Source: a virus
Lineage: Duplodnaviria; Caudoviricetes
Virus record (IMG/VR): IMGVR_UViG_3300044731_000955
Location: 1-61,473 of that record
Reading direction: 5' to 3' (one strand)
Length of the DNA stretch: 61,473 bases
The notes under the pieces were generated by a model. It was given only the letters and a program-made list of their open reading frames with translations, had not been told where the DNA came from and did not search any database. The position numbers were made by a program, and so were the translations under genes. Positions 3,603-45,589 of this stretch are shown one piece after another; the first letter of the stretch is position 1, and each line of letters begins with the position of its first letter.

Positions 3603-3827
3603 TTATATTGTCCACTTTTTTTCCGGACAAGCGTCTGCTCCCACAGGTGAGAACACTTTAGCACTCGTAGTACAGCCACATTTACCACAATAATCGCGTA
3701 TAGTAGATTGCACCCAAAACTCACAATTAGCACATATTTCAAGTCTTTTTTCAGCCACTTCTTTTTGCTCTTCTGTTGGGTTCATAGCAGTCATATAAGA
3801 CAGCAGGATTTCTTTTACTTTGTTCAT
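3603..3827 (-). CDS. Small Cys-rich metal-binding protein (DUF6171-like)
   Basis: R-x3-CxxC...CxxCGC...K...CP-x2-KW pattern. Confidence 0.65.
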   Translation of the reverse strand: MNKVKEILLSYMTAMNPTEEQKEVAEKRLEICANCEFWVQSTIRDYCGKCGCTTSAKVFSPVGADACPEKKWTI

Positions 3828-4471
3828 AAATTTAGATATGTTTTGTAAGATGATGAAGTATTTGCATTTTTTATGTAATATTTAAACTCTTCATTGTTTT
3901 CATAAGTTTCTTGGTTAAATTCCCAAGGATAATGTCTAGCTACATATGGGTAGGTAGTGCTTGCTCCACCAACAAAATAAGGGGTTCCTTTTTTATACAA
4001 AGCAAAGGTAGTATCTATTGCTATATCTGTGTAGATATTGTTTGTATGAGCAGAATTCCATCTATTTTTTTCGTATGATTGTAGATGGTTATAATATAAT
4101 GAATCTTCTTTTACTATTCCCCAATTCAATCCTAATCCTATCTTATCTAATCCTAATGAGTCCATATTATCTTTTAAATACAAAAGAGTATCTGAAGGTG
4201 TATCTAGTAAACCCACATCTGCGTCCGTTATAACATAATCATAATTTGTTATAACATCACCTAGTATTTGCCAAGGAGCTGTATGCCCTATGTTTTCTGT
4301 TCTGTGTATTGTGCATGGGCTTGTATCATACCATTCTAGAAGTGGTGGATAGTCTGAGCCATTATCTATAATAATAATTTCACCCACTCCTTCGTAAGTT
4401 TTAATCTTATTTACCATTTCTACCACCCAAGTAAATAGATTTCTATTATTTATAATTACAGGTATATTCAT
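3824..4471 (-). CDS. Glycosyltransferase, GT-A/GT2-like
   Basis: IIIIDNGS and VITDAD (DxD) motifs. Confidence 0.8.
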   Translation of the reverse strand: MNIPVIINNRNLFTWVVEMVNKIKTYEGVGEIIIIDNGSDYPPLLEWYDTSPCTIHRTENIGHTAPWQILGDVITNYDYVITDADVGLLDTPSDTLLYLKDNMDSLGLDKIGLGLNWGIVKEDSLYYNHLQSYEKNRWNSAHTNNIYTDIAIDTTFALYKKGTPYFVGGASTTYPYVARHYPWEFNQETYENNEEFKYYIKNANTSSSYKTYLNL

Positions 4472-5025
4472 TAATTATGTACATATAAAACTTTATCAAT
4501 CTTCACATAGTCTTGATATGCTTGCATTACCTTCTCTACAAAGTACCCATCAGCAGCATATTCTTTGCCTAATATTATATTTTTCCCTACATCGTTTCTT
4601 ACTGCAAATGCTCCAATATCTATTTGATTAAACACTAGTGAGCATTCAAAAAAATGGTATTCGTAATGAGAATGCACCATGTCCCAATATATTATTGCTG
4701 GATTAAATTCAGATGCTTTAGATAACTCCTCAACAAAATTTGGGGTGTAATAATTATCATCACCACTCATTACAATATATTTAGCTACACTATTTTGTTT
4801 GCCTAATTCTCTAGGCGTATGTCCCCAATCATTATATGTTTTATCTAATAGTGTATATTTTATTCTGTCATCTTTTACAATGTCAATTTGGTTAAATTCA
4901 TCTACGCTATTATCTATAATTACATTAGCTACCCAATCTGTATTTGTCTGAGCTAATAATGAATAGAGCATACTCTTTAGTTCATTAATTCTATTGTAGG
5001 TTGGTATAATAAAATCTACTATCAT
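4471..5025 (-). CDS. Glycosyltransferase family 2
   Basis: IIPTYNR, SLLAQT, GDDNY motifs. Confidence 0.85.
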   Translation of the reverse strand: MIVDFIIPTYNRINELKSMLYSLLAQTNTDWVANVIIDNSVDEFNQIDIVKDDRIKYTLLDKTYNDWGHTPRELGKQNSVAKYIVMSGDDNYYTPNFVEELSKASEFNPAIIYWDMVHSHYEYHFFECSLVFNQIDIGAFAVRNDVGKNIILGKEYAADGYFVEKVMQAYQDYVKIDKVLYVHN

Positions 5026-5762
5026 TTATTTAAGAAGTCTTTTAGTAATTGGCTGTAATCATATTTCCAATTTGGATTTAGATACACATCACCCGTTGGT
5101 ATTTTACCTTGCATTCTTAACGATTCTATATGTTCAAAATGCCTTACAATTACGCTTGGCTTAGAATCATCATTATCGCTACCCATTCCGGACATATGGT
5201 AACCCCTTCCACCCCATACATAGAACCAACTAACTTCATCATCCGGTGGTGATGCTAGAACTACTTTTTCGGGGAAGTTCTCCTTAATGCTAATAACAAA
5301 TGTCATGTCATAGCCAGCATTTTCTAATGGATGTTTACCCACTCCTTCCCATGCTTCTCTGCTATATACTATACCACTATTACCAAGTGATGTAATGGCT
5401 TGTATATCAGGTACATTAAAAAATATTCCTTTTTGCCAATGCATCAATGCCGTTCCTTCTACAAAATATTTATCTATATTTTTTAGGTGATTTGGTAAGG
5501 CTAAGTCATCGTCATCCCAAACTATAATTGTATCTCCTTTACATTGTGATACTGCAAAGTTTTCTTTATCTCCAATAGTGGGAAATGTATAATCTAAATT
5601 AATTATTCTTACATCTGGATGGTCAAATATTAATTTTTGTTCTGGATAATCATTTACGATTACTAATTCTTTTTCTCCGTCATAATCTTGATTTAAAAAA
5701 GATTGTAAAGACTCTTCTAAATATTCCACTCTTCCGTATGTAATCATCTTGCAAGAAAGCAT
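5022..5762 (-). CDS. Glycosyltransferase family 2
   Basis: TYGR...SFLNQDY...ELVIVND...WDDDD motifs. Confidence 0.85.
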   Translation of the reverse strand: MLSCKMITYGRVEYLEESLQSFLNQDYDGEKELVIVNDYPEQKLIFDHPDVRIINLDYTFPTIGDKENFAVSQCKGDTIIVWDDDDLALPNHLKNIDKYFVEGTALMHWQKGIFFNVPDIQAITSLGNSGIVYSREAWEGVGKHPLENAGYDMTFVISIKENFPEKVVLASPPDDEVSWFYVWGGRGYHMSGMGSDNDDSKPSVIVRHFEHIESLRMQGKIPTGDVYLNPNWKYDYSQLLKDFLNK

Positions 5763-5768
5763 AATTTA

Positions 5769-6698
5769 TTATTTTAAAACTGTTTTTAAAGCTGTTTCGC
5801 ATATCTCATTCCAATAATAAGAAGATGCTCTATCGGGGCTGATTTGAAGGTCGGCGCCATAGGGCAATTTATTTATGTATTCACCCTTAAAGAATAATCC
5901 ACTAATAGAATCTGTAACGCCTGCGTTATGCAGTATAGTATATGTTTCTACATCTGAGTAATTGTTAGTAACCCACCCAAAATCCATTCTTTTATCTACT
6001 CTTGTTTCATGCCCAAAGTACCATGCGTTCCAAAGAAAAGACCACATTCCTGCTGTCCACTTTTGAATAGGATAATCTCCGTCATGCTTCATTTTATAAT
6101 TTGGTTCTTCGTCACAGAAATATTTATATAAAATAATAGAGTCTAGTTCAACCTTTTCCCAAAATTCAAAGGTGGTATTTTTAACTATGTATTGCGCTCC
6201 CCCAGAATTATTATTCAAAAGCTTTGGTATTAATTTGTCAATGCCAATTATCTCACACATCTTTTCATACACATGATTGCCCTTCTGTTGAATATAATCG
6301 TAATTTATGTAGCTGTTTGTATCACTTAAAAACCATGAATTGCCCGCTATCATTGAATTAAACTCCGGTTTCTTTGTGAAAACAATATCCGAATCATGTA
6401 AAAATAAAACCTCATTCTGCAACTCCGGATGAGCTAGTAAATGTTGTTTCATTAGATTAAAGTAAACGGATGGGATATAAAATTTATCTACCCTATTATC
6501 ATTATAAAAAAAGAAATTAACCGGATATGTCTCTTTTAATTTTTGCCAATCATCGGGTATAATATCATTATCAATGGAACATACTATGTTAATACAATCT
6601 GTATCAACGCCCATTTTTATAAAATTATTAATTAGAACCTCGCACTGCCAAGTGTAGTATGGTATAGCGGGTTGGCAACAGACGTATCTTAACTTCAT
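5769..6698 (-). CDS. Glycosyltransferase resembling GT96/GT95 (peptidyl-serine galactosyl- / Hyp arabinosyltransferase-like)
   Basis: YYTWQ near N-terminus, LHDSD DxD, GGAQYI, WTAGMW; same motif order as plant SERGT1/HPAT. Confidence 0.6.
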   Translation of the reverse strand: MKLRYVCCQPAIPYYTWQCEVLINNFIKMGVDTDCINIVCSIDNDIIPDDWQKLKETYPVNFFFYNDNRVDKFYIPSVYFNLMKQHLLAHPELQNEVLFLHDSDIVFTKKPEFNSMIAGNSWFLSDTNSYINYDYIQQKGNHVYEKMCEIIGIDKLIPKLLNNNSGGAQYIVKNTTFEFWEKVELDSIILYKYFCDEEPNYKMKHDGDYPIQKWTAGMWSFLWNAWYFGHETRVDKRMDFGWVTNNYSDVETYTILHNAGVTDSISGLFFKGEYINKLPYGADLQISPDRASSYYWNEICETALKTVLK

Positions 6699-6709
6699 AC
6701 TTTTTTTAG

Positions 6710-6717
6710 CAAAGTTA
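6710..6717 (-). promoter_or_regulatory. -7 element TAACTTTG upstream of GT operon
   Basis: TAnnTTTG 11 nt upstream of ATG at 6698, adjacent to TTAATTAAATTAA motif. Confidence 0.5.
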
Positions 6718-6736
6718 TTTAATTAAATTAATAAAC

Positions 6737-7114
6737 CTAATATTCTTTGTAAGATTTTTCTTCGGTTAGTTCTGAGCCGTATTTTGTATTGATTTGTTTT
6801 TTGATGATGGCTCTGACATCGTTTAATTGGTAAACCTCCCGAGCTAGTTCTACGAACTTATCTCCAAAGTCTTTTTTGTGTTCATAGTCCCTTAAACTAT
6901 CTTCTACTGCCCATAGTTTTTTGTTTATGGAGTATAGCTCTTGTACTAATGGGTCTATTAAAATGACTGAGTGCTTTTTATTTAGGGCGTTTTTTACCAT
7001 TTTCCACTCTTTGTCTATGTTTATAAGCTTTTCTGTATCGTGTATTAAAAGCTTTTTTATGGTTAGGATGGTATATTTGTCCACCACTTCACCGATGCTG
7101 ACTTCTATTTTCAT
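6737..7114 (-). CDS. DUF6165-like protein (commonly next to glycosyltransferases)
   Basis: EVSIGEVVDKYTIL...LWAVED...FVELAREVYQLND-R...EEKSY signature. Confidence 0.75.
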   Translation of the reverse strand: MKIEVSIGEVVDKYTILTIKKLLIHDTEKLINIDKEWKMVKNALNKKHSVILIDPLVQELYSINKKLWAVEDSLRDYEHKKDFGDKFVELAREVYQLNDVRAIIKKQINTKYGSELTEEKSYKEY

Positions 7115-7168
7115 GGGCTAAAGATAAGATTTTTACCATTAATCATTAATTTAATTAAATTAATTCCA

Positions 7169-7176
7169 TAGCTTTG
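7169..7176 (+). promoter_or_regulatory. -7 element TAGCTTTG for plus-strand GT operon
   Basis: TAnnTTTG in divergent intergenic region, preceded by AT palindromic motif. Confidence 0.5.
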
Positions 7177-7220
7177 TGGTAACTAAAACAAATAACGAAT
7201 AAACCTAAAAAATACAAAAA

Positions 7221-7328
7221 ATGAAAGAAACACTATTGATAGTATTATTAATTGTAATTATTATTTTTATTATCTCATATTATTGTGCTAAATGGCACAC
7301 TAAAACTTATGATGACCCATTTCTATAA
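7221..7328 (+). CDS. 35-aa single-TM peptide (MKETLLIVLLIVIIIFIISYYCAKWHTKTYDDPFL)
   Basis: A-rich leader then ATG, clear hydrophobic helix; below ORF-track cutoff. Confidence 0.5.
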   Translation: MKETLLIVLLIVIIIFIISYYCAKWHTKTYDDPFL

Positions 7329-7386
7329 CCAAAACAATATAAAAGAGCATTACCCAAGTGATGAAAATACACTAAATAAATAACAT

Positions 7387-8751
7387 ATGCCTACAAGCTA
7401 CCCGCTCTACAAAGATTCTGTCCGAAATTGGTTTCTGCAAAATGTCCCTTTAGATACTACTATATTAGATATTGGAGCAGGATGTGGTACTTATAGTGAT
7501 TTGATTCGTGGTTATGGTTATAAAATGGATGCGGTAGAAATATGGGAGCCATACATAAACCAATATGGGTTAAAGAATAAGTATGGGTGGGTGTATGAAG
7601 AGAATGTCCTTAAAATGCCCCTTGATGTACTTGGAGCCTATGACTTTTATATATTGGGTGATATTTTGGAACATTTGTCTGTGGAAGATGCCCAATGGCT
7701 CATGAATTTTTTAAAGATAAAAGGTAAACAATATCTTATAGCTGTGCCTTATGTTATGGAGCAAGGTGAGTATGAAGGCAATGTCCATGAAACCCACTTA
7801 CAGCCTGACCTTACGCCAGAAATAATGCTAGAAAGATACCATGATTTAGAACTGCTTTATGGCAATAATTTCTATGGTTATTACACAAATAAAAAACAAA
7901 AACATGAGAAAGCTTACGTCCTTTATGCTGATGATTCCTATTATGACCTTGTGGATGCTTGTTGTCGTTCCATTAGAAATTTTAGTGATTACCCTATATA
8001 TGTTTATATGCTTAATTCTTCTCAAAAGGTGAATGTGGTAAATACCATTACTAAAAGATGGGATTGTGATGTAATACATTTAAAGAAGCGTAATGATTAT
8101 ATAGTTAGAGAAGATAAGCAGATATATAAGCTACTGATTGAAAGACCTAAGATAGTAAGAGATGCTTTGAAATATGCTGAAACCGTTGCCTATATTGACA
8201 CAGATAGCATAGCAAACTGGAACGTAGATTCTATTTTTGATTATTATGATGTAGAATCAGACTACCCATATTTTACAAAGGGAATATATGATTTCTTAAT
8301 AATTAATGGTAAAGGTGGTGCGAGTAGTTATGATGACTTGAGTGATACATTGGAAGCGCCATTGTGTGAATTGTTTAAATCAGACCAATCAATAAGAAAA
8401 TTTACTGGCTATAGGCAAACTGGTTACTTTGTTGCCGGTCAAAAATCTATTGATTTCTTAGATATTTGGGCGCATAGATGTCAACACCCAATGATATTAA
8501 AAGACAATGCAAGATATGCTCCATACAATGAAGAAAGCGTTCTGCAAACGTTATTATATGATTTTAATGCACACAAAGGATTACCATTAATTTATGTCAA
8601 TGGATTACGCAAGGGGCTTGAGTTTAAAGGATATGAATACTTTATGGGTGAATGGTTTAAAGTACCTGCACAAAAAGATGATTTACTTTTTTACCATGGA
8701 GAAAAAGATATAAATAAGATTAATGAATTTATAGAATATTTAAAGTTATGA
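7387..8751 (+). CDS. Class I SAM methyltransferase fused to GT-A glycosyltransferase
   Basis: ILDIGAGCG and GDILEHL in N-half; YIDTDSI DxD in C-half. Confidence 0.75.
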   Translation: MPTSYPLYKDSVRNWFLQNVPLDTTILDIGAGCGTYSDLIRGYGYKMDAVEIWEPYINQYGLKNKYGWVYEENVLKMPLDVLGAYDFYILGDILEHLSVEDAQWLMNFLKIKGKQYLIAVPYVMEQGEYEGNVHETHLQPDLTPEIMLERYHDLELLYGNNFYGYYTNKKQKHEKAYVLYADDSYYDLVDACCRSIRNFSDYPIYVYMLNSSQKVNVVNTITKRWDCDVIHLKKRNDYIVREDKQIYKLLIERPKIVRDALKYAETVAYIDTDSIANWNVDSIFDYYDVESDYPYFTKGIYDFLIINGKGGASSYDDLSDTLEAPLCELFKSDQSIRKFTGYRQTGYFVAGQKSIDFLDIWAHRCQHPMILKDNARYAPYNEESVLQTLLYDFNAHKGLPLIYVNGLRKGLEFKGYEYFMGEWFKVPAQKDDLLFYHGEKDINKINEFIEYLKL

Positions 8752-10799
8752 AGATAGTATTACTTTGCCCTTCGTTAAGTACGGGTGGTATGCCCCAATT
8801 TGCATTAAAAAGAATTCAAGAAATATTAAAGCATACTGAAAATGTAGAGATGTATTGTATTGAGCTTAATTTTCATGGGGCTGATTTTGTGGTTCAAAGG
8901 AATCAAGTAATTAAAATACTTGGAGATAGATTTTATGAGGCTGGTTTGAACAAAATGCGAGTAATAGATATTATCAATGAGATTAAGCCTGATGTGGTTC
9001 ATATTGAAGATGTGGCAGAGAGATTACCAAAGGAGCTTGCAACTGCCTTATATAGAAATGATAGACAATTCTATATCGTTGAAACGCCTCATGATAATAT
9101 ATTTAACCCTGACGCAGAAAAAATTTTCCACCCAGACCTTTATGCTTTTTGCACTCCTTTTCATGAGGACGTTTACCAAAATATGGAGTCTTTATACTTT
9201 ACAATTCAATATCCAATAGAAGAAAAAAAAGTAACTAAGGATATGAGGATTAAAGCTAAGAAAGAAGTAGGGTTTGCCTTGGATAGAAAGACGGTGTTGC
9301 AAGTGGGATTATGGACTCCACAAAAAAACCAAAAAGAAACTATTGCTATTGCTCGTAAATATCCTAATATAGATTTTGTGGTAGCTGGTAATTTGGCTGG
9401 TAATTTTCAATTTTATTGGGAAGAATTAATAAAGGATTTACCATCTAATTTTAAAGCTCTTGGTGAGAGAAGTGATATAGATACTTTGTTGCAAGCTGCT
9501 GATATATTTATTTTCCCATCTACCAATGAATGTTCTCCTTTGTCTTTGCGTCATGCTATTGAAGTTGGTTTGCCTATTGTAGCCAATAACTTACCCGCTT
9601 ATGCAGGAACCTTAGATAAGTATTTAAAACCCTTAGATTCCAATTTAAATACCATTACCAGAGATTATAAAATACCAAATAGTAACAATTCAAGAAACTT
9701 TGCACTAGAGCATAAAAAAATGTATGAGGTTCTTATGAAAATACCAATCAAAAAGCAAGCTGTTTCCATCACGCAACACTTTGTCAATCAGCCATTCTTA
9801 GAGATTAAAGGTAATAGTGAGAGTGATTTTTTAGTTCAATTTTTAGACGAAAAAGGTAGTATATATTACCAAAATACGATAAAAGCAAACCATTGGGTAC
9901 GATTAAATAGGCAGTGGTACACAAAATGGAGGACAAAAGTTTTTGAGGGCAAAGACTTGATTTACAATAGCACCTTGGACCTAGAAGGTAAAAAAGTTTT
10001 TATAGCTATTGATAGTAAATCACTTGGAGATTCGCTTGCTTGGATGCCCTATGTGGAAGAGTTTAGAAACAAGCATAATTGTACGGTGGTTTGCAGTACA
10101 TTTTGGAATAAGATATTGGACTATCCAGAGATTGAATTTGTGGAGCCGGGGACGATGATAGGATGTTATGCCATGTACACTTTGGGGTGGCATTGGAACG
10201 AAGATAAAGAACCAACCCTTTGCAATACCATTCCTTTGCAACAATCAGCTAGTAATATCCTTGGATTGGATTATGTGGAGCTAAAACCACGCTTAAAGTA
10301 TGATATTGGAGAAAATAAGTATGGCAAGTATGTCACAATCGCCACAAACAGCACTGCGGGGCTTAAATTTTGGCTTAAACCATCTTGGCAACAAGTTATC
10401 AACCACCTACACGAAAAGGGCTACAAGGTCATAAATACGTCCAAAGAACGCAATCCATTTGAAAACTGCTACCAATTAGAAGATACAAGCATAGAAAATA
10501 CCATGTCTGTTATCCATCATAGTGATTTTTTTGTAGGGCTTAGCAGTGGAATTTCATGGCTTTCCTTTGGGCTTGGCAAGAAGGTGGTAATGATTTCAGC
10601 CTTTACAGAAGCTGACCACGAGTTTGACTGCATCAGACCCCGCAATAACAATGTATGTACAAATTGTTGGAATGACCCTAAGATTAAATTCGATGCGGGA
10701 GATTTCAATTTCTGCCCGCATCATAAGGGTACTGAGAGAATGTTTGAGTGCCAAACGAGTATCACACCCGAAATGGTTATTCAGCAATTGCCTCTGTAA
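8748..10799 (+). CDS. GT4-like glycosyltransferase fused to AAH/TibC-like protein O-heptosyltransferase
   Basis: STGGMP and AADIFIFPS..E (GT4); SLGDSLAW, IPLQQ, FVGLSSGISWL, VVMIS and CxxCWN...CP...C (TibC iron-binding Cys). Confidence 0.8.
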   Translation: MKIVLLCPSLSTGGMPQFALKRIQEILKHTENVEMYCIELNFHGADFVVQRNQVIKILGDRFYEAGLNKMRVIDIINEIKPDVVHIEDVAERLPKELATALYRNDRQFYIVETPHDNIFNPDAEKIFHPDLYAFCTPFHEDVYQNMESLYFTIQYPIEEKKVTKDMRIKAKKEVGFALDRKTVLQVGLWTPQKNQKETIAIARKYPNIDFVVAGNLAGNFQFYWEELIKDLPSNFKALGERSDIDTLLQAADIFIFPSTNECSPLSLRHAIEVGLPIVANNLPAYAGTLDKYLKPLDSNLNTITRDYKIPNSNNSRNFALEHKKMYEVLMKIPIKKQAVSITQHFVNQPFLEIKGNSESDFLVQFLDEKGSIYYQNTIKANHWVRLNRQWYTKWRTKVFEGKDLIYNSTLDLEGKKVFIAIDSKSLGDSLAWMPYVEEFRNKHNCTVVCSTFWNKILDYPEIEFVEPGTMIGCYAMYTLGWHWNEDKEPTLCNTIPLQQSASNILGLDYVELKPRLKYDIGENKYGKYVTIATNSTAGLKFWLKPSWQQVINHLHEKGYKVINTSKERNPFENCYQLEDTSIENTMSVIHHSDFFVGLSSGISWLSFGLGKKVVMISAFTEADHEFDCIRPRNNNVCTNCWNDPKIKFDAGDFNFCPHHKGTERMFECQTSITPEMVIQQLPL

Positions 10800-11018: not shown

Positions 11019-12389
11019 CTACAACCCTGCTTTGTTTAATCTTTCATTTAATTCTTCTATTTGTTTTTTTAATTCTAATATTTCAGCGTCTTTTTCTATT
11101 TTTAATTCTTGTACTGCTTTTATAGTTATATATGGCAATACTGAATTTTTTATGCTTTTATAATCGCCTTCTTCATATTCTTCTTCTATAATAGTTCCGT
11201 CTTCTTGCTCAATTTCGCGTTTCTTTTTAATTGGTTCTGTTATTACAAGATTTGGGAATACTTCTTCAACTTCTTGCGCAATTAAACCAAGTTCTTTTCC
11301 GCCTTCTATGCTTTCTTTCCATTCATAGTTTACAATTCTTAGCTTCATTAAATTATCAAGCTTTGGCGTAGCGTTAGCAATATTCTTTTTTAATCTAATA
11401 TCCGAACGACCTGAAGTTGTACCATTTGACCATATTGTAAAACAAACAACACTTGAATCAACACATTGTAAAAAATAATTAGTTGTATTATTTGGTGCAG
11501 CATTTGAAAAATATAAAAATGGCCCATATGGACTTGCCGCAACATTTGTTATATATACAACATTTTCATTATTCCTATTTGTATATATTTCGTGATAGTT
11601 ACCACTTGAATTAACATAACTGCCATTATTAGTTATTTTTGTATAACCACCACTTGCAATTTGAGTAATACGCATTCTTTCTGTAAGTGCAGTATTAAAT
11701 GTTAAAGTACCACTATTGTAAACATCTGTTTTACCACTTCCAGCTAAATCAATAGCAAAATCAGTAGAACCATTACCCATTTGTAATTCATTACCTGCAT
11801 AACCACTTGTCCCAATCGTTATACTTGTAGAGAATGTAGCTGCTCCTGTGGATGAAAAATACAATCTATTAGTTCCTGCACTTATAGGGTCTCCACCTGT
11901 TGAATTAGATTGTCTAATTGCTAAATCTCCAACTGCATCGTGTCCTGCTCTTATTGCCCAATTCTTTGAACTTGCTTGAGTATCGTAAATACTTAAATAA
12001 GCACCGCTTCCTGTTACTTTTATTTGGTCACCTGCCGTTACACTACTTGAGAATGTAGCTGCACCTGCATTAGTAATAGATAATAATCCAATAGTATTTG
12101 CAGCATTTAAAACCCTAAAACCATTTGTTACATTAGCTGAAAAATAAGCTGAAGTTCCTAAATCTTGTGATGAATTTTGTTGTATGGTTCCATTAGCTGT
12201 AAGAGTACCACTAAACGTAGCAGCAGCTCCTGTCAATGCACCACCCAATAATAATGTACTACTAACCTTAGCTGTACCAGTTACTTCTAATTTATAACTA
12301 CCACTAGGTGCTGCTCCTATTCCTACGTTGTTAGATGCGTCAGTTAGTATTGCTAAAGGAATAGTACCCAATTTCTGTGTCAGTCCCAT
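11019..12389 (-). CDS. Tail fibre/spike with C-terminal S74 intramolecular chaperone
   Basis: NVGIG/GAATFS repeats; SDIRLKKNI...GLIAQEVEEVFP...KAVQEL coiled coil. Confidence 0.85.
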   Translation of the reverse strand: MGLTQKLGTIPLAILTDASNNVGIGAAPSGSYKLEVTGTAKVSSTLLLGGALTGAAATFSGTLTANGTIQQNSSQDLGTSAYFSANVTNGFRVLNAANTIGLLSITNAGAATFSSSVTAGDQIKVTGSGAYLSIYDTQASSKNWAIRAGHDAVGDLAIRQSNSTGGDPISAGTNRLYFSSTGAATFSTSITIGTSGYAGNELQMGNGSTDFAIDLAGSGKTDVYNSGTLTFNTALTERMRITQIASGGYTKITNNGSYVNSSGNYHEIYTNRNNENVVYITNVAASPYGPFLYFSNAAPNNTTNYFLQCVDSSVVCFTIWSNGTTSGRSDIRLKKNIANATPKLDNLMKLRIVNYEWKESIEGGKELGLIAQEVEEVFPNLVITEPIKKKREIEQEDGTIIEEEYEEGDYKSIKNSVLPYITIKAVQELKIEKDAEILELKKQIEELNERLNKAGL

Positions 12390-12390
12390 A

Positions 12391-13695
12391 TTATTTGTTT
12401 TTTAACTCGTTTAGTTCTAATCTTAATTCTTGTACTGCCTTTGTTAATATAGCTATGATACTATTGTATTCCACACCTGCTAATGAACCATCTTCATTAT
12501 AAAATACTAATTCTTTATTTACTTTTTCTACTTCATCAGCTATAAAACCATAAGTTACATTATCATATAATTCATCAGTATATTCATTAGTAAAATCATT
12601 TTTTTTACGATAATTAAATTGAACTGGATTAAGTTGGCTAATAAAATCAACATTAGTTATAGATTTTATATTTGATTTAGATTCTCTAGTTGATACTAAA
12701 TATCCTAAACCTCCACCACTTTCAACAATCATTGTTCTTCCTGAAACGGCATTATTATAAGTAAATGTTCCAGCATTAATAAAACCATCTGCTCTAACAG
12801 TAAATATATCAGTACCTGTAGAAGTTGCAGCATTTGAACCATTTCTAACTTTAAAAGCATAATAACTTGAAGAAGTTGCATTAACTGCGACTATACCACC
12901 ATAATATTGAGAATAAAGAACATAAGCTGCAGAGCCTGTATTCCCATCATTAACAAATTGTAATTTATATCCATTATCAGTAGTAGTTCCTATTAATACA
13001 TTACCCCCATTTGTAATTGCCATTCTTGGTGTAAAAGTTACTGCTGTATTTATAGTTCCTGAAGGTGCAGTGTACCAAGTATGACCACCAGCATATTGTT
13101 CATAATCACTTGCTTGTGCAGTACTTGCATATAATCTTGAATTTGAAGAAGCAGAAAAATAATAATTATTAGTAAGATGAAACTCATTAACATATCTACC
13201 CCAAACAGCACTACCTACAAAACCTACCTCTAATGCTTTACCATTTACCCAACCATTACTCGGTGTAACTCCTAATCCTAAATTGCCATTTGTATCAATA
13301 GTTAATCTTGTTGCAGATGCAGTATTATCTTCTAAAGTAAGGCTTCCAGTTGAACCAAGGTCAAAAGAATAATTTCTATTGGTTTTTGTAGTTCCAGCAG
13401 TTCTAATAAGTTTTAAACGAGGGAAAAAGTCACCTGTTGCACTTGCAGCAATTTCTTGATTACTACCACCAACTGATGTAATACCACTACTAAACGTAGC
13501 ACTTGTACCACTTAATGCTCCTGTAAAATTACCTGTACCACTAACATCTAATTTATAAGTAGTATTAGTATTACCTATTCCAACATTAGTTCCATTATCA
13601 AATATTAAGCTATTGCCTATGGTTGTACCTGTGGCACGAAGTAAAAAATTTGTGGTTACGAGGGGTGCCGTAGCCAATATACTATTTGTACTCAT
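12391..13695 (-). CDS. Tail fibre/spike with S74 chaperone
   Basis: GNVGIG repeats; STRESKSNI...GFIADEV...KAVQEL. Confidence 0.85.
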   Translation of the reverse strand: MSTNSILATAPLVTTNFLLRATGTTIGNSLIFDNGTNVGIGNTNTTYKLDVSGTGNFTGALSGTSATFSSGITSVGGSNQEIAASATGDFFPRLKLIRTAGTTKTNRNYSFDLGSTGSLTLEDNTASATRLTIDTNGNLGLGVTPSNGWVNGKALEVGFVGSAVWGRYVNEFHLTNNYYFSASSNSRLYASTAQASDYEQYAGGHTWYTAPSGTINTAVTFTPRMAITNGGNVLIGTTTDNGYKLQFVNDGNTGSAAYVLYSQYYGGIVAVNATSSSYYAFKVRNGSNAATSTGTDIFTVRADGFINAGTFTYNNAVSGRTMIVESGGGLGYLVSTRESKSNIKSITNVDFISQLNPVQFNYRKKNDFTNEYTDELYDNVTYGFIADEVEKVNKELVFYNEDGSLAGVEYNSIIAILTKAVQELRLELNELKNK

Positions 13696-14360
13696 ATTAA
13701 ATCTTTTTTATATTTCCATTTAAAACCTCTATGGTAGTGGCTTAAACCTCTGCAAACCTTTGATATTGAAGCTGAGCTATATCCTATTTTAGATGCTGCA
13801 TTTACACTTTTATATGTAGCTACAAGTTCTCCATCTAAACTAAATTGATGTACTTCCATTGCTGGTCTATAACAAGTACAATTTCTTTTTTTATGAATTA
13901 AATTCTTCTTGGATTCTCTTATCTTATCTTTTGTTTCTTGAGATAATCTAGTAAAAGTTCTTGTTAAAGCAAATTTTTCTCTTTGCCCTTCCCTTTGGTA
14001 AACTTTTTTAACCGCTTCTCCTGTTTTCTTTCTATGCTCGTCACTATAAATATATTTTCTACCAAGCGTTCCTTCATCACCTCCATCAGTATAATTACAT
14101 AAAGTACCTGTACCCAAGTCTTTTCTACCATATAACTTGATAAATTCCTTTTCTTTTTCACAAGATTCCTCGTGAGTCAAATTATCAAGTAATATTTCTA
14201 CCTCAAAATCTGTTTTATTTGTAATATTTTGCCATAATTTATTTCTTCTATGTTTATGACTTTTGTCATAGGCTCTAGCATAATTGTCATCAGTTGCTGA
14301 AATGCCAATATAGAATGGTTCATTATTGTCTAATCTGATATGTCTGTAAACGTATGCCAT
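13692..14360 (-). mobile_element. Free-standing GIY-YIG-like homing endonuclease with NUMOD3/NUMOD1-like DNA-binding tail
   Basis: YVYRH...FYIG...R...E...N-TDGG; HQFSLDGELVATYKSVNAAS...ISKVCRG...GFKWKY. Confidence 0.8.
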
Positions 14361-17300
14361 TATTTTGTAGCTACAATTTTTTTAAGTTCTTCAATTTGTG
14401 CTTGTTGTTCTTGAATAGCTTTTGTTAATATTGCTATCATATTGTTATACTCAACACCAGCCAAAGTAACACCATCTTCTTGATAAAATACTAAGTCTTT
14501 ATTAACCTTTTCCACCTCATCAGCTATAAAACCATAAGTTATATTATCATATAATTCATCAGTAAATTCATTTGTTATATTATCTTTTTTACGATAATTA
14601 AATTGTACTGGATTAAGTTGATTAATAAAATCAACATTACTTATAGATTCTATATTTGCCTTTGATTCTCTTGTGGATACTAAATATCCTAATACTCCAG
14701 ATGAACTTAATATAGCAGTTCTACCAGTTGCTGAAATATTATAAGGTGAATTAGTTTGTGTACCAGTTTCTATTAATCCATCATTTCTAACTTGAAACAA
14801 AGCATTTGCGGCACTACTTTCAACTCTGAAACCAAATGTAGCACTTGTCGCACCAGCTCCTCTAACAGCTAATCTCATGTCTGAATATCCAGTCATTCCG
14901 ATTCCAACATTCCCCCCACTTGTAAGAGTAAATGGTTGATTACCTGCGGTTTCATTATATATAAACAATGAAGTAGTTCCTAAACCAAATTTATATTTTT
15001 GAGCAGTTCCACTTGTTTTTTCAAATGTTATTGTACCACCTTCTGTACCACTACTTGTTATATGTAGCTGTCCTACTGAGCCACCATTATAAGCAGTAGA
15101 TAAAGTTCCTGTTGTTGCCGTTACACTACTTGAGAATGTAGCTGCACCTGTTGAGGCTATGGTAAGTAATGTAGTAGCTCCTACCCCACTAAACAATCTT
15201 AAATTAGTTGAATCAACAAGCAAAGAATAAGTTAAAGGTGTACCACCGCCTGTCATTACAAAATAAGTATCCCCAGTACTAGACAAATGCAGTTTACCAC
15301 TTGGACTACTTGTTCCAATACCAAGATTACCTGAAGCGTCAAGATTCATTCTTTGTACCCAAGTAAGTGCATTGTCAGCAGTTCCGCTTGCAGCAGTGTA
15401 CCAACGATGGTCAGAGCCGTCAATAAGATATTGACCTGCTACGTCTGTAAATTTATATTTCCAACCTGTATCAAAATAACTATTTGTTGTTAAGTATAAT
15501 ACATTAGCACTATTTTGGAAAGCAATAGCAGATTGATTATTTGTATCTCCACCTTCTAAAACTCTAAAAATACTTCCCCACGCACTTATTGTTGTAACTC
15601 CTACTCCTATATTACCACTAAACGTAGCACTTGTACCACTTAAAGCTCTTGACACTAAGGTAACAGTAGTACCATTATCTGTGATTGCACTATCTCCTAT
15701 TGTACTTGATGCTGTGAACTTTGGTATTGTATTAATTGTACCAGAACCAGCTATTCCACTATAAGCTCCTACTGAATAAGAGTAAGCATAAACTACTACT
15801 ATATCATTTAATTGACAAGCTGTTGCTAATATTATACTTGTACCATTGGTTGCAGTATATTCTGATTGAGCAAGATTAGAACCATTATAAAAAACATCTA
15901 TTAAGCCTTGAGTATAACTTACTGAAAAAGTAGTTTGCGCAGCTGTCGCAGTAAAAGTAGTTATAGTTCTTAATGCATTTGTTGGTAAATATGCCGTCAA
16001 TAAATTATCAATCTCAACAATGTTACCAGCCGCTAAAGCCGCCGCCATAACCACTGTTGTACCATTAGTCGCAGTAAAATCAGTACCATTTACAAACTTA
16101 ACTCCATTCACAAACACATCTACCATTCCAAGATTGTAACCATTGGTAACAGTAAAAGTTGTCTGTCCTGATGTCGATGTAAAAGTCTGAACCGCTCTCG
16201 CTGATGTTGTTGCGTTACCGCTTGTCCCAGACGACCCACTAGTCCCTGTGGAGCCACTTGTCGCAGATGTCCCAGACGTCCCAGTCGTCCCCGATGAGCC
16301 ACTTGAGCCAGCCGAACCTGACGTCCCAGACGTTCCACTAGTCGCAGACGACCCAGATGTCCCAGTGGTCCCACTTGAGCCAGATGACCCACTTGAACCA
16401 GCCGAACCTGATGACCCTGTTGAACCATCAACACCACTAGTTCCAGAAGACCCACTTGACCCTGCCGAACCGCTTGAACCTGTATTTCCACTTGACCCAT
16501 TTATACCACTTGACCCACTTGACCCTGACGAGCCACTAGTTCCTGAAGTTGTACCTACAGCTACACCAATTTGTTTTATGTTGGTAATTATTGAAGGAGC
16601 TGCTGGTATTGTTCCTGTTGCAGCTACTGCTGTTACTTGTACATCAGATGCATTTGCTTGAAAATAAACTTCATAATAATCATTAGCATTTGCACTATCA
16701 ATAATAGAAACGAATGGTAACTGCTTTGCACTTTGGCTTCTTAAACCTAAGATAGAATCAGTTCTAATAATATTAGCTCCATTTTTCTTTAGCCAAATAT
16801 TAACATCTGCACCTCCACCACCTGTATGTTCAATTTGTAATGAATATGCTATTTCATAGATACCAGTATGTTGAACTGTAAGTTGTGAACCAGAATATAC
16901 TATACCATTACTTAATTCATCATTTGTGTATGTAATTGCTGTTGGTGTATTTGCCGCTGTAACCACTTGAGTAGATGTACTTGTAAACGCACCATACCAG
17001 TTAGCTATTGAAGCTCCTGAAGAACCATCAATACCATTACGACCAGTAGTCCCAGATGTCCCAGCTGACCCACTGCTGCCAGATGTCCCAGAAGAACCAC
17101 TGCTGCCAGACGACCCACTTGTCCCAGTTGACCCACTGGTCCCCGCTGTCGCAGATGTCCCAGAAGTACCACTAGACCCATCTCCTCCACTCGCACCATC
17201 TAAGTTAACAGACCAAGCAGAATAAGTTCCGCTACCTACTGTTCTAGTTGGAGCTGCGAATGATAAAGAACCTGTTGCTGGATTATAAGCTGTAACCTCA

Positions 17301-18007
17301 CACTCTTGGAAGTTATTAGCGTCATAAACCACAATTATAGATTGAGCTACCGTATATGCTAATTGAGTACCTACAGTTAAAGTTCCTGCATTACCCAATG
17401 TAAATGTTGTCGATGAAGTTGTGGCATATCTGTCACCTTGTAAACCACTTGTACCAGAAGTCCCAGATGTTGCACTACTGCCAGAAGTTCCAGCCGTACC
17501 ACTTGTCGCAGACGAACCACTTGTCCCACTTGTCGCAGACGTTCCAGATGACCCACTTGAACCTCCCGTTCCGTCTGTGGCAGATGTTCCAGAAGACCCA
17601 CTCGACCCACTTGTTGCAGATGTCCCAGAGGAGCCACTAGTCGCAGATGAGCCAGATGTCCCACTTGTTCCCCCCGTTCCGTCTGTCGCAGATGTTCCAG
17701 AAGTCCCAGATGTCGCAGACGACCCACTTGTCCCCGCGGTAGCAGATGTCCCAGATGACCCACTTGTCGCAGATGAGCCACTAGTCCCTGCGGAGCCAGA
17801 TGACCCAGAAGTCCCAGACGAGCCAGATGTCGCACTTGTACCTGCAGTCCCTGATGTCGCACTTGTTCCAGATGACCCAGACGAGCCAGAAGTCCCAGAA
17901 GAACCAGAAGAGAAGCTCGTAGCGGTCACAATTCCGTCCGTTGCTACAAGAACTCCGTTAAGACCTCTTACCTTTAAATCGCCTGAAATTAATCCTTGTA
18001 TTGCCAT
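14360..18007 (-). CDS. Long tail fibre: Gly-Ser/Thr collagen-like tracts, C1q/BclA-like domain, fibre repeats, S74 chaperone
   Basis: Three G-X-Y tracts (GTS/GSS), GIYEIAYSLQ C1q-like strand, GNVGIG repeats, STRESKANI chaperone. Confidence 0.85.
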   Translation of the reverse strand: MAIQGLISGDLKVRGLNGVLVATDGIVTATSFSSGSSGTSGSSGSSGTSATSGTAGTSATSGSSGTSGSSGSAGTSGSSATSGSSGTSATAGTSGSSATSGTSGTSATDGTGGTSGTSGSSATSGSSGTSATSGSSGSSGTSATDGTGGSSGSSGTSATSGTSGSSATSGTAGTSGSSATSGTSGTSGLQGDRYATTSSTTFTLGNAGTLTVGTQLAYTVAQSIIVVYDANNFQECEVTAYNPATGSLSFAAPTRTVGSGTYSAWSVNLDGASGGDGSSGTSGTSATAGTSGSTGTSGSSGSSGSSGTSGSSGSAGTSGTTGRNGIDGSSGASIANWYGAFTSTSTQVVTAANTPTAITYTNDELSNGIVYSGSQLTVQHTGIYEIAYSLQIEHTGGGGADVNIWLKKNGANIIRTDSILGLRSQSAKQLPFVSIIDSANANDYYEVYFQANASDVQVTAVAATGTIPAAPSIITNIKQIGVAVGTTSGTSGSSGSSGSSGINGSSGNTGSSGSAGSSGSSGTSGVDGSTGSSGSAGSSGSSGSSGTTGTSGSSATSGTSGTSGSAGSSGSSGTTGTSGTSATSGSTGTSGSSGTSGNATTSARAVQTFTSTSGQTTFTVTNGYNLGMVDVFVNGVKFVNGTDFTATNGTTVVMAAALAAGNIVEIDNLLTAYLPTNALRTITTFTATAAQTTFSVSYTQGLIDVFYNGSNLAQSEYTATNGTSIILATACQLNDIVVVYAYSYSVGAYSGIAGSGTINTIPKFTASSTIGDSAITDNGTTVTLVSRALSGTSATFSGNIGVGVTTISAWGSIFRVLEGGDTNNQSAIAFQNSANVLYLTTNSYFDTGWKYKFTDVAGQYLIDGSDHRWYTAASGTADNALTWVQRMNLDASGNLGIGTSSPSGKLHLSSTGDTYFVMTGGGTPLTYSLLVDSTNLRLFSGVGATTLLTIASTGAATFSSSVTATTGTLSTAYNGGSVGQLHITSSGTEGGTITFEKTSGTAQKYKFGLGTTSLFIYNETAGNQPFTLTSGGNVGIGMTGYSDMRLAVRGAGATSATFGFRVESSAANALFQVRNDGLIETGTQTNSPYNISATGRTAILSSSGVLGYLVSTRESKANIESISNVDFINQLNPVQFNYRKKDNITNEFTDELYDNITYGFIADEVEKVNKDLVFYQEDGVTLAGVEYNNMIAILTKAIQEQQAQIEELKKIVATK
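17430..17910 (-). repeat. Degenerate 9-bp-period Gly-Ser/Thr repeat (first of three tracts; others ~17015-17195 and ~16205-16550)
   Basis: Repeated gtcccagatg/gacccactt words; protein GTSGSSATS. Confidence 0.85.
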
Positions 18008-18008
18008 C

Positions 18009-18515
18009 TTAAACGTATTTAAAACTTGTTTTATTTTTCATATCCCCACTCAACATTTTCCACATTTTGTTTTTGCTAATCCCTAAAGCATCTGCCGCCT
18101 CTTGCCCACCTTCATAGTAAATTCCAGTTGATTCATCTAATATAATCTTTTTATCTGGGGCAAATTGATAATTTGCAGCTAACCATCTTCCTGCTGCTCT
18201 TGTTGCTTCTGTTATTTCTCTAAAATTATTTTCAACAGCATGAGTGACATTTTCTTGACGAGTCATCCATTCTAAATTACATAGCATATTGTTTGCTTTA
18301 TTACCATCCATATGGTTTACTTGCTCTTTGTTTTCTGGATTTGGTATATATGTTTCTGCTACTAATCTATGTACAGAATAGAACTTATTTTTGATATGTA
18401 CTCTTAAATAATTAGAACCATTAAAATGCAGTTTTAAAAACCTCATAGTCTTTAATGAGAATATTTTCCCATCAACGGTTACTAGATATTCAGGATGTTC
18501 TTTTAATTGGCGCAT
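18009..18515 (-). mobile_element. Free-standing HNH homing endonuclease
   Basis: VHRLVAETYIPNP...VNHMDGNKANN..NLEW-T..EN-H. Confidence 0.88.
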
Positions 18516-24207: not shown

Positions 24208-24699
24208 TTATTTATCTGAAATATGTTGGTCAAATTCAAGCAATTCTTTTGTCGCTTCAGCTATTTTGTACTTAGCTAACAAATCTCCATAAGAACCAAC
24301 GGCTTTGCGTTGAATTTCAATGAATTGCAAAAGGTATTGGGCTACAGAAACATCTTCATCTTCTGCTTGCTCATAAAACTTTTTGTAGTGATTATATACT
24401 TCTAATTCCATTTCATAGCCAAGATTAAGAGAGTCGCCTATATTTGCTATCTTATCTGATACTTCGTCTATTTTTGGTAAATCTGCGCAATCACCCATAT
24501 CGTTCATGAATTCAACATGGATTTGATAATGAGTTAATTCTTCAGCACTTTCTGCTAAAAAATACTTTTGGCTACCGAAATATCCTAATCTTTGCAATTG
24601 GTTAGCAAAGCTTTTCCATAAATTAGCCTGATAAAGCTCAAGTTCTATGGATTTCTGCAAACCTTTTCTCATGCTTGCACTTAATAGTGATTTTAACAT
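24208..24699 (-). CDS. Ferritin-like protein
   Basis: E-x6-W, GY-G...F...EELTH, E-EV, D...Q-L-QFIE-Q four-helix pattern. Confidence 0.8.
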   Translation of the reverse strand: MLKSLLSASMRKGLQKSIELELYQANLWKSFANQLQRLGYFGSQKYFLAESAEELTHYQIHVEFMNDMGDCADLPKIDEVSDKIANIGDSLNLGYEMELEVYNHYKKFYEQAEDEDVSVAQYLLQFIEIQRKAVGSYGDLLAKYKIAEATKELLEFDQHISDK

Positions 24700-39610: not shown

Positions 39611-39883
39611 TTAATTATTTGAAACGTAAGCTAATATATCATTGTGACGAATCAAGAAATGCAATTCATCGTTTAATAAAATGGCTTCTCCTGCTCCTTT
39701 GATATGAAAAATAATATCGTCTTTTTTTGCTTCCATTTTTATTTTAGCTGTGCCTCTTCCAGTAGAAACTACTTTAGCCTTACAGCTTCTTTCTATGTAG
39801 TTTTCAGGTAAAAATAAACCTCCCTCTGTAATACCTTCTGCCATAAATGGCTTTACTAAAACTAAATCTCTAATTGGTTTCAT
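39611..39883 (-). CDS. groES: Co-chaperonin GroES-like
   Basis: KPIRDLVLVKP...TEGGLFLP...VVSTGRG...HNDILA. Confidence 0.85.
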   Translation of the reverse strand: MKPIRDLVLVKPFMAEGITEGGLFLPENYIERSCKAKVVSTGRGTAKIKMEAKKDDIIFHIKGAGEAILLNDELHFLIRHNDILAYVSNN

Positions 39884-44898: not shown

Positions 44899-45165
44899 TT
44901 AGTCTATAACTATAGTACCACTATTGTTAATGGTAATTACATAATCAACTGTTGTATCAGTTAATAAATGTACGCCATACCAACTTGTCCCGTCACCGTA
45001 AATTGGCTGCTTTGACTTACTACTAGTAAATAATTTATTAGAAGTAGTTAGGGTTGATGTTGTAGCGTATACTACTTGTGTCCCTTGTGATGTTGCGACA
45101 TAACCTGCTTCGCTTGCTGTTGGGTATGTATTTTTTGATAATACATATGCTATTAAATTTGCCAT
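44899..45165 (-). CDS. Small beta-rich putative virion protein
   Basis: Thr/Ser-rich, IYGDGTSWY...INNSG-I; in head operon. Confidence 0.5.
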   Translation of the reverse strand: MANLIAYVLSKNTYPTASEAGYVATSQGTQVVYATTSTLTTSNKLFTSSKSKQPIYGDGTSWYGVHLLTDTTVDYVITINNSGTIVID

Positions 45166-45184
45166 TTTTTATCTTTTTTAAATA

Positions 45185-45589
45185 TTAAGGTGCTGCTGTT
45201 GTTGTGGTAGTAGGCGCTGCCGTTGTCGTTGTTGTTGTATTACCTTGTAATAACAAATATTTACCAATAATACCAAATTCAACAATACCAGCTGCCGCAA
45301 TTGATGCAATATCTGTTTTGGTTGTTAAATTAACTCCTAAAACCGAAACCCAGTTAATTGGCACTTCTGGTGCAGGTGATAATTGCCCTGTAATAGAACC
45401 ATCATCGTTAGTAGTACTAAAACTAACTGTTCCAGATGTACCTACAAATTGTACTACCGCAGAATCCCATCCAGATAAATCTTGGTAAAAATTATTATTA
45501 GCATTAAAAGAATCTGTTGCATCTACAACTGTGCTAATTTTTGAACTAAATTTTTGTAGTCTTATTAAAAGTTTACTTACCGTTGCCAT
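45185..45589 (-). CDS. Putative head decoration protein with C-terminal TTTTTTAAPTTTTTAAP tail
   Basis: Beta-rich, between portal and scaffold; Thr tail visible. Confidence 0.55.
   Translation of the reverse strand: MATVSKLLIRLQKFSSKISTVVDATDSFNANNNFYQDLSGWDSAVVQFVGTSGTVSFSTTNDDGSITGQLSPAPEVPINWVSVLGVNLTTKTDIASIAAAGIVEFGIIGKYLLLQGNTTTTTTAAPTTTTTAAP

Follow-up and report, generated by a model that had tools for sequence, protein, structure and literature searches.

The 61,473-base stretch of DNA analysed here (hereafter the window) is the entire virus record IMGVR_UViG_3300044731_000955, which CheckV, the source of all completeness values given below, estimates to be 98% complete. Between its lysis block and three Peptidase_S74 fibre genes lies an eight-gene island, six genes of which (3824-10799) encode soluble glycosyltransferases (GTs) that together hold seven GT domains, one of them weakly supported. 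Comparison of the window with its relatives indicates that the island probably acts in the cytoplasm to O-glycosylate proteins of the phage's own particle, and that it consists of two separable modules, A (3824-6698) and B (6737-10799), each pairing writer enzymes with acceptors. The comparative evidence lends good support to module A as the writer on threonine (Thr) tracts of the TTTTTAAP kind; action of module B on the fibres is plausible only. The original prediction, made from the window alone, had already counted six GT genes and seven GT domains, and this count was borne out. It had also treated the island as a single system, a claim that did not survive comparison: only the four minus-strand genes at 3824-6698 track the Thr tracts, and the window's relatives separate the two modules cleanly. 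None of the eight island proteins contains a membrane-like segment (maximum KD(19) = 1.16).

The core of module A is a soluble GT-A enzyme of 309 amino acids (aa; 5769-6698, minus strand) that belongs to the family phrog_4417 (E 1.8e-72). Its structural model (predicted local distance difference test, pLDDT, 94.1) has a GT-A fold of GT8-like type. The best structural match of the model is glycogenin (Z 15.2, root mean square deviation 3.5 over 224 residues), followed by LgtC (Z 14.8), the Skp1 galactosyltransferase (14.6) and UGGT (14.5), with GlyE (Z 13.6) and A64R of chlorovirus PBCV-1 (Z 11.7) lower; of these, glycogenin, the Skp1 galactosyltransferase, UGGT, GlyE (from the serine-rich-repeat adhesin systems) and A64R (a capsid enzyme) act on proteins or protein-bound glycans. 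D102 and D104, which form a DxD motif, are invariant in 26 family sequences. By sequence, a GT8 assignment finds no Pfam match, and identity to structures of the GlyE and glycogenin type is only 6-12%; Pfam at E<=1 returned zero matches for this protein or for the 215-aa protein described below. A 'GT96/95-like' label had been proposed for one of the GTs and was not confirmed, given that none of the 26 phrog_4417 members matched any GT Pfam model, PF23452 HPAT included, at E<=10. No GT95 or GT96 enzyme occurs among the listed fold-search matches of the 309-aa protein, and the sole trace of the label is HPAT, carried by 10% of the members of one Atlas cluster. A search of PDB sequences with the 309-aa protein and with the 454-aa protein of module B yielded nothing useful. 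The phrog_4417 family comprises 1495 protein clusters, and the 120 of these that are listed are all unnamed and lack Pfam domains. Some homologues carry fusions to radical-SAM (PF04055) or methyltransferase (PF13489, PF08241) domains (P0063, P0117).

Three further minus-strand genes complete module A. Two encode GT2 proteins of 246 aa (5022-5762; PF00535, 45.0 bits) and 184 aa (4471-5025; 40.9 bits), both of which exceed the PF00535 gathering threshold of 23.3 bits; the 184-aa protein has no hydrophobic segment. The third encodes a 215-aa protein (3824-4471), a candidate elongating transferase with no PHROG, NCBIfam or Pfam match, whose family numbers 1340 representatives, is often fused to GT2, methyltransferase or TPR domains, and has invariant residues D36, D83 and D85. 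When compared with the GT2 proteins of the window it appears only weakly GT-A-like (hhalign probability 33%, E 4.5e-4). Among 11 relatives that carry the cassette, a phrog_4417 homologue is present in all 11 (35-46% identity), a homologue of the 215-aa protein in one, of the 184-aa GT2 in one and of the 246-aa GT2 in none. By this comparison, only the phrog_4417 enzyme consistently accompanies the Thr tracts and the other module A genes are exchangeable, a pattern that fits an initiating enzyme plus variable extenders. The phrog_4417 gene of the window is 35-46% identical to those of its own phage family, in which most neighbouring genes are 55-98% identical, and 57-74% identical to genes on unrelated viral contigs. 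This pattern suggests that the whole cassette was swapped in from outside.

TTTTTAAP-type tracts occur in four open reading frames (ORFs) of the window (32710-34692, 34713-38831, 45185-45589 and 51288-51635). A DNA pattern for six Thr codons, which ignores reading frame and for which reversed-pattern controls were low, has 23 matches in the window versus 0.00 expected from 100 shuffles; here and below, frames were counted from stop to stop and not as gene calls. The longest of the four candidate acceptors of module A is a 1372-aa virion structural protein (34713-38831, minus strand; phrog_14478, E 2.2e-56) in which a poly-Thr linker lies internally (35277-35372) and a TTTTTAAP tail at the C-terminus (34725-34739). 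Next to it is a 660-aa protein (32710-34692, minus strand; tracts at 32953-34476) made up of three near-identical modules of ~130 aa joined by long TTTTTAAP/TTSTTTTAAP linkers; only its first 69 residues are conserved in two tract-free relatives, records G051 and G084. The three tandem modules (32953-34119) share identical peptide sequence, and their duplication is therefore recent. The orthologue of the 1372-aa protein in record G001 has additional modules of this kind, with a poly-Thr linker ahead of each. The third candidate, a 134-aa head-module protein that adjoins the portal gene (45185-45589, minus strand), ends in NTTTTTTAAPTTTTTAAP; an Atlas search with this protein gave only leads under 0.9. 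The fourth, a 115-aa protein (51288-51635, plus strand), has TTTTTATPTTTTTTTAAPTTTTTTAA as its C-terminal tail and is paralogous to the 87-aa ORF beside it (51665-51928); both match one shared locus in G051 and G084 at 35-40% identity. The original prediction had spoken of four tract-bearing virion proteins. The tracts are indeed present in four ORFs, and virion status follows from family assignment for the 1372-aa protein only and is suggested by position for those of 660 and 134 aa. That prediction had also envisaged a coat on the capsid, which was not upheld for the shell: the major capsid candidate of the window has no Thr tract.

The evidence that carries the assignment of module A comes from relatives of the window. 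A search with the portal protein identified 77 viral loci with 69-99% identity, and the 41 located on contigs of at least 35 kb were examined. A total of 15 of these 41 encode a phrog_4417 homologue, as do 13 of the 15 records that are at least 90% complete; the two exceptions, G051 and G084, are both rated 100% complete. Comparison of all 67 ORFs of the window showed that G051 and G084 are collinear with it and lack exactly the genes at 3824-6698. Retained in these two records are the module B genes for a DUF6165 protein (92% and 79% identity, respectively), the 454-aa protein (94% and 70%) and the GT4-TibC protein (60% and 59%), along with long collagen-like fibres rich in serine (Ser) and Thr beside the GT4-TibC gene. 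Runs of six Thr were then counted in 20 records, namely the 15 with the gene plus G051, G084, G054, G055 and G085. Of the gene-bearing records, 14 of 15 have 8-31 such runs and one (G086) has none; G051, G084 and G054 also have none. Runs of at least four Thr in any frame number zero in G051 and G084 versus 35 in the window. G086 was ruled out as an exception, as it has five-Thr runs at the expected junction.

Individual proteins show the same pattern at the level of residues. In the 1372-aa protein, a poly-Thr linker follows the conserved junction EEI[DN]RY...NGG in the window, G079 and G086, and the orthologues in G051, G084 and G054 pass directly into the next domain with no run of four or more Thr. 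The 134-aa protein terminates in QGNTTTTTTAAPTTTTTAAP in the window, in QGSTTTTTTAAP (STTTTTTAAP) in G079 and in QGN in G054; the G051 and G084 versions are joined to the next ORF and carry no tract. The 134-aa and following 88-aa ORFs (44899-45589, minus strand) are separate genes with a TAA stop between them in the window, G079 and G054; in the cassette-free G051 and G084 the equivalents form a single fused ORF of 213-216 aa. In G079, the equivalents of both the 134-aa and the 88-aa protein have poly-Thr tails (loci L227 and L228 compared).

On a phylogeny of the portal protein, the three cassette-free and tract-free records are scattered, with G051 placed as the sister of the window (support 100/98), and three changes are needed, forced by well-supported branches. 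By this reconstruction, two joint changes of module A and the tracts are safe and a third is likely, G054 being 79% complete. In the window, 26-45 kb separate the tract genes from the cassette, and this distance rules out hitch-hiking through physical linkage as the cause of the co-variation. The proposal that writers and acceptors are co-encoded is consequently supported for module A, in that Thr tracts come and go with its genes across relatives. A check for co-occurrence of GTs and tracts among relatives, as originally suggested, comes out positive for module A versus the Thr tracts, and module B persists in tract-free records. Because module B persists in these records, its TibC-type enzyme appears to be independent of the Thr tracts, and because it is retained when all Thr tracts are gone, module B would have a target of its own. 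The extra genes found in relatives encode, according to Pfam, chitinase-like, phosphoesterase and HNH proteins and unknowns, with no further named GT among them.

The association extends beyond the phage family of the window. A profile search identified at least 557 viral contigs with a phrog_4417 homologue, and the best 80 loci were used. An ORF with at least five consecutive Thr lies within 10 kb in 70 of these 80 loci versus 2 of 49 loci that encode TibC without the gene. Enough upstream DNA was available for 76 loci, and in 53 of them a poly-Thr frame on the same strand ends no more than 400 nucleotides upstream of the phrog_4417 gene, and in none does one lie just downstream. These 53 upstream proteins form 19 sequence clusters, and those that could be annotated are either major tail proteins (phrog_1407, Phage_tail_2) or members of phrog_14478, like the 1372-aa protein of the window; a homologue of this protein is encoded directly upstream of the phrog_4417 gene in loci L075 and L129. 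In a second GT4-TibC family, the phrog_4417 homologue is followed by a small ORF ending in CCNP-TTTTTTTAAP in 5 of 5 distinct loci. Additionally, 49 of 56 TibC-bearing records were searched for six-Thr runs. Seven of the 49 hold a phrog_4417 homologue, and six of these seven have 9-46 runs, the seventh being an 11.8-kb fragment; among the 42 without a homologue, 34 have zero runs, 5 have one or two and 3 have nine or more. Records with a GT4-TibC gene that lack phrog_4417 and have zero tracts include G002, G003 and the complete G011. G002 and G003 were considered as members of the window's family and were rejected, as they share only lysis-side genes and the GT4-TibC region with it; no homologues of the 134-aa or 1372-aa proteins were found in either.

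The phrog_4417 gene was also detected by tblastn in 77 records of cultured phages, and seven of these phages, chosen for diversity of host and not at random, were examined. In all seven, the gene is located in the head-tail module beside poly-Thr proteins or frames. In Lactobacillus phage iLp84, the capsid protein ends in VPTTTTTTTSK and the tail tube protein in GETTTTTTTSK, with the phrog_4417 gene located between the genes of the two, and a 126-aa poly-Thr protein is also encoded; prophage PLE3 of L. casei BL23 likewise has the gene between those of capsid and tail tube proteins with TTTTTTTSK ends. The tail tube protein of Enterococcus phage phiFL1A ends in the poly-Thr/Ser tail TTTTTTTQASSK, and the end of its gp45 is likewise poly-Thr. 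Clostridium phage phiCTP1 has poly-Thr ends on gp18 and gp11, Staphylococcus phage RQ1 and Arcanobacterium phage TPWB06 have tail tube tails together with an overlapping poly-Thr frame, Enterococcus phage Planchet has a poly-Thr frame directly after the capsid gene, and Chryseobacterium phage MA9V-3 has an internal poly-Thr...AAP linker in the upstream neighbour. The poly-Thr frames of RQ1 (L240, 5235-5937), TPWB06 (L243, 5164-5926) and Planchet (L242, 4567-5885) overlap or immediately follow the major tail or capsid gene at its end, in a different frame. From this arrangement, a minor form of the subunit that is extended with poly-Thr by frameshifting may be surmised.

Module B consists of three genes. 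A DUF6165 protein of 125 aa (6737-7114, minus strand; PF19662, 42.1 bits versus a cut-off of 27) has homologues in 9 of the 11 cassette-bearing relatives, with no match in G056 and G086. The second gene encodes a 454-aa fusion (7387-8751, plus strand) recognised by fold and weak Pfam matches. In its structural model (pLDDT 80.5), an S-adenosylmethionine (SAM) methyltransferase-like N-terminal domain precedes a C-terminal GT-A domain of GT6/GT8-like type, compatible with the label of methyltransferase-GT proposed earlier. Foldseek matched the N-terminal domain to the methyltransferases BelI, CysG and MrsA (E ~3e-7) and the C-terminal domain to the blood-group enzymes GTA/GTB and to alpha-3GalT (E ~1e-7). 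Pfam matches of the N-terminal domain to methyltransferases are weak and below threshold (E 0.01-0.16); the sequence contains ILDIGAGCG, a candidate Gly-rich SAM loop, some homologues have precomputed PF13489 or PF08241 assignments, and D271 and D273 of the GT-A domain are invariant. The third gene encodes a 683-aa fusion (8748-10799, plus strand), for which the earlier label of GT4-TibC held: a GT4 domain (residues 169-287; PF00534, 55.1 bits versus a gathering threshold of 26.4) is followed by a TibC/Aah-type domain (residues 360-680; TIGR04414, 239.4 bits versus a curated equivalog cut-off of 200). The latter domain aligns with PDB 4rap over 295 residues (E 2.6e-45). All four Cys of its C-terminal cluster, a putative metal site, align with those of 4rap and 4rb4, and the protein reads LGD like 4rap, whereas 4rb4, a deposited mutant, reads LGA. 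Score and motifs together indicate that the domain is a true member of TIGR04414 in a new context. No autotransporter was found in the genome by Pfam, PHROG and annotation scans. TIGR04414 is matched in all 15 relatives that are at least 90% complete (in G086 at only 29 bits) and scores above the cut-off in 18 of the 20 records. The TibC-type gene is thus core, and module B is regarded as a core set of the window's phage family.

The likeliest candidates for acceptors of module B are its neighbouring fibres. Only a short gap separates the end of the island (10799) from the first fibre gene (from 11019), confirming the reported proximity of GT and tail-fibre genes. Two tail-fibre or spike proteins of 456 and 434 aa (11019-13695, minus strand; Peptidase_S74, E 1.9e-16 and 3e-8) are followed by the main fibre of 1215 aa (14360-18007, minus strand), a candidate acceptor with Pfam Collagen (E 3.3e-30) and Peptidase_S74 domains. 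As had been noted from the window, the G-X-Y runs of the main fibre are rich in Ser and Thr, which make up 80-92% of the X and Y positions. Among viral TibC loci, 26 of 56 have a Ser/Thr collagen-like ORF (at least 8 G-X-Y triplets, at least 60% Ser/Thr) within 10 kb; this holds for 14 of 17 loci with GT4-TibC fusions and 12 of 39 with TibC alone, versus 3 of 80 phrog_4417 loci counted as a control. Collagen-like ORFs near TibC genes fit fibres as acceptors, and they may also reflect only the location of these genes in fibre modules.

Taken together, the particle proteins would be glycosylated before or during assembly with nucleotide sugars of the host. The phrog_4417 enzyme would add the first sugar to Thr residues of the TTTTTAAP-type tracts, and TTTTTAAPTTTTTAAP is a candidate acceptor sequence for it. 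Four proteins have such tracts as linkers and C-terminal tails, two of them from the tail end (1372 and 660 aa), one from the head module (134 aa) and the fourth being the 115-aa protein. The two GT2 enzymes and the 215-aa GT-A-like protein, which vary among relatives, would extend the Thr-linked glycan, and the outcome may be mucin-like stalks, stiff, hydrated and resistant to proteases, that hold displayed domains outward. The TibC-type domain would move a sugar, heptose in the case of TibC, onto Ser or Thr residues of a different virion protein, for which the adjacent Ser/Thr-rich collagen-like fibres are the likeliest choice; this second glycan may then be extended by the GT4 domain of the TibC fusion and by the GT-A domain present in the 454-aa protein, and capped by the methyltransferase domain of the 454-aa protein. 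This scheme builds on direct observations, namely the families and folds of the enzymes, their soluble nature and the way in which module A co-varies with the tracts; from them we infer the transfer of sugar, the order of initiator and extenders, the identity of the sugars, the acceptor of module B and the benefit to the phage. A broader proposal, put forward tentatively and with somewhat less than even confidence, is that poly-Thr constitutes a portable acceptor code across phage lineages. According to this proposal, a single dedicated GT8-like enzyme family, phrog_4417, would recognise a short poly-Thr tag whichever particle protein carries it and would build mucin-like stalks there, in podophages of Bacteroidota type, in siphophages of lactobacilli, enterococci, staphylococci and clostridia, and in jumbo phages, and the virion encoded by the window would carry two independently evolving glycan coats, the second pair being the TibC-type enzyme and the collagen-like fibres. 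If so, variable extension enzymes would diversify the virion surface much as O-antigens do.

Several points weigh against O-glycosylation of the particle by both modules. All support for it is comparative, for the window and for every phage that carries phrog_4417, and poly-Thr/Pro linkers could function without glycans. The phrog_4417 family lacks a characterised member as well as a GT Pfam match, and the family does not give donor or acceptor. Ten of the 80 homologue loci have no poly-Thr ORF within 10 kb, and the window itself, with its nearest tract 26 kb off, would score negative by that measure. Many tracts without a detected homologue are present in the incomplete records G001, G012 and G037, and the same is true of two portal relatives, G055 (40 six-Thr runs; 89% complete, with no island in the record) and G085 (33 runs; 77% complete, with a contig that ends at the island). 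Since these five records are 13-89% complete and the contigs of G001 and G085 end at the island, they are considered uninformative, not contrary. The shared ancestry of the relatives means that raw counts overstate the number of independent events, and a portal tree may misrepresent a mosaic genome. For module B, no complete relative lacks the TibC gene, and there is accordingly no contrast by loss. Ser/Thr collagen-like fibres are common in phage fibre modules, so that the 26 of 56 loci noted above may be positional, and transfer of heptose would depend on ADP-heptose made by the host.

An explanation that is possible, if on balance doubtful, is that only module A glycosylates the virion and that module B targets another phage protein or a surface adhesin of the host, altering the infected cell. 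TibC and Aah act on autotransporter adhesins of bacteria, and NCBIfam names the TibC/Aah family for these adhesins. The retention of module B in the absence of any Thr tract indicates a target of its own, and 27 of 39 viral loci with TibC alone have no Ser/Thr collagen-like ORF within 10 kb. Yet 14 of 17 GT4-TibC fusions, the type found in the window, lie within 10 kb of such an ORF versus 3 of 80 controls, the GT4-TibC gene adjoins such a fibre in the window, G051 and G084, and GT4-TibC is core in a phage family in which no integrase was found.

Two further explanations would dispense with glycosylated particle proteins. It is improbable that the Thr tracts are plain unglycosylated linkers and that the GTs remodel lipopolysaccharide, capsule or exopolysaccharide of the host, whether to block superinfection or to aid release of progeny. 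The GT2 and GT4 families are mostly builders of polysaccharides, the closest NCBIfam names are those of exopolysaccharide, colanic-acid and teichuronic-acid enzymes (with scores far below the cut-offs), and the island adjoins the lysis genes. This explanation nevertheless leaves unaccounted for the joint loss of cassette and tracts, 26-45 kb apart, at three places in the tree, as well as the location of 53 of 76 homologues directly after poly-Thr proteins. Moreover, the island encodes no membrane segment, and no flippase, polymerase, lipid-carrier enzyme or integrase was found. Glycosylation of phage DNA bases as a defence against restriction, a common function of phage GTs according to PMC12619734, can scarcely be credited here. 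No gene of a thymidylate-synthase or hydroxymethylase family is present in the 98%-complete genome, no nucleotide-metabolism genes were found in its annotation, TibC-type enzymes act on proteins (TIGR04414), and modification of DNA would leave the co-variation with Thr tracts unexplained.

The nearest known case is virion glycosylation in mycobacteriophages, in which the enzymes are unrelated to those of the window. A 2023 article in Cell Host Microbe reportedly describes virion glycosylation of the mycobacteriophages Che8, Corndog and Myrna. Mycobacteriophage capsid and tail-tube subunits bear glycans at their C-termini (Freeman et al., 2023, as cited in PMC12619734). In these phages as in the window, soluble phage-encoded GTs are proposed to O-glycosylate structural proteins, C-terminal ends included. 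Phage Che8 has an operon of three GTs (gp108-110), none of which resembles any protein of the window (best BLAST E 0.36; hhalign probability to the phrog_4417 profile <1% for all three). Its capsid protein ends in NKTGS and its tail tube protein in QYSDGS, with no poly-Thr, whereas the tracts of the window are long and serve as both linkers and tails. The hosts also differ, the terminase relatives of the window being phages of Flavobacterium and Cellulophaga, and the mycobacteriophage glycans were reportedly measured, whereas the system of the window is known from sequence alone. In the papers searched for phage poly-Thr glycosylation, phage-encoded TibC and glycoprotein staining, mycobacteriophages were the only tailed phages encountered in which phage enzymes glycosylate the particle.

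Other precedents resemble single components. TibC-TibA and Aah-AIDA-I of E. coli share with module B the TIGR04414 domain, the four Cys, the LGD Asp and a soluble cytoplasmic enzyme. In the window, by contrast, the domain shares its protein with an N-terminal GT4 domain, the gene belongs to a phage in which no autotransporter was found, and the likely acceptor is a collagen-like fibre rather than a beta-helix passenger. In serine-rich-repeat adhesin systems of Gram-positive bacteria (GtfA/B, GlyE and others), soluble GTs glycosylate low-complexity Ser/Thr tracts, and the phrog_4417 model matches GlyE as well as glycogenin, a GT8 enzyme (above). In contrast, the tracts of the window are Thr-only with Ala-Ala-Pro spacers, the targets would be virion proteins, and sequence identity is as low as stated earlier. 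A64R of PBCV-1 is likewise a virus-encoded GT-A enzyme that acts on the virus's own capsid; PBCV-1, however, is a eukaryotic virus and lacks Thr tracts. The capsid glycans of PBCV-1 are N-linked and atypical.

The genome has a G+C content of ~33%. Outside the island, its genes include those for a large terminase and a portal, several assigned to PHROG families of 'virion structural proteins', others with crAss-type ring and muzzle signatures, both weak, and one for an SU10-type adaptor. The lysis block includes an M15 endolysin and small membrane proteins, the replication block a primase-helicase, and no integrase was detected among the window proteins in PHROG and other annotation scans. A total of 87 records are related by terminase, every one below 60% identity, and the closest cultured relatives (~28% identity) are phages of Flavobacterium, Cellulophaga, Tenacibaculum and Maribacter. 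The island is flanked by a 74-aa Cys-rich protein (3603-3827, minus strand) with weak Pfam matches only, whose membership in the system is uncertain. It is retained at 72% and 81% identity in G051 and G084, respectively, despite the absence of module A, and hence does not travel with that module. Two homing-endonuclease-like genes lie among the fibre genes (13692-14360 and 18009-18515, both minus strand), one a weak I-HmuI NUMOD-like match and the other with an HNH_3 domain, and relatives hold such genes elsewhere in the island (L001, 879-1796; L244, 6737-7279). A ferritin/rubrerythrin-like protein (24208-24699, minus strand; PF00210, E 5.8e-14) is encoded between giant structural genes (1527 and 1775 aa), with 71% identity in G051 and no match in G084. 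A Cpn10/GroES-like co-chaperonin (39611-39883, minus strand; PF00166, E 2.2e-14) is encoded within the structural module.

Relative to the mycobacteriophage case, a different and very widespread enzyme family is here tied, by repeated joint gain and loss, to a recognisable tag on particle proteins, and the genome is a good model because its relatives naturally separate the two modules. If the proposed function is correct, sequence alone would suffice to predict glycosylated parts of virions from their poly-Thr tags, and a name could be given to a large family of 'hypothetical proteins'. There would also be an explanation for the Thr-rich linkers that are frequent on fibres and decoration proteins of phages. 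The proposed function would further bear on the stability of phages, their adhesion to mucus and polysaccharide, their recognition by antibodies during therapy, and the glyco-engineering of display phages.

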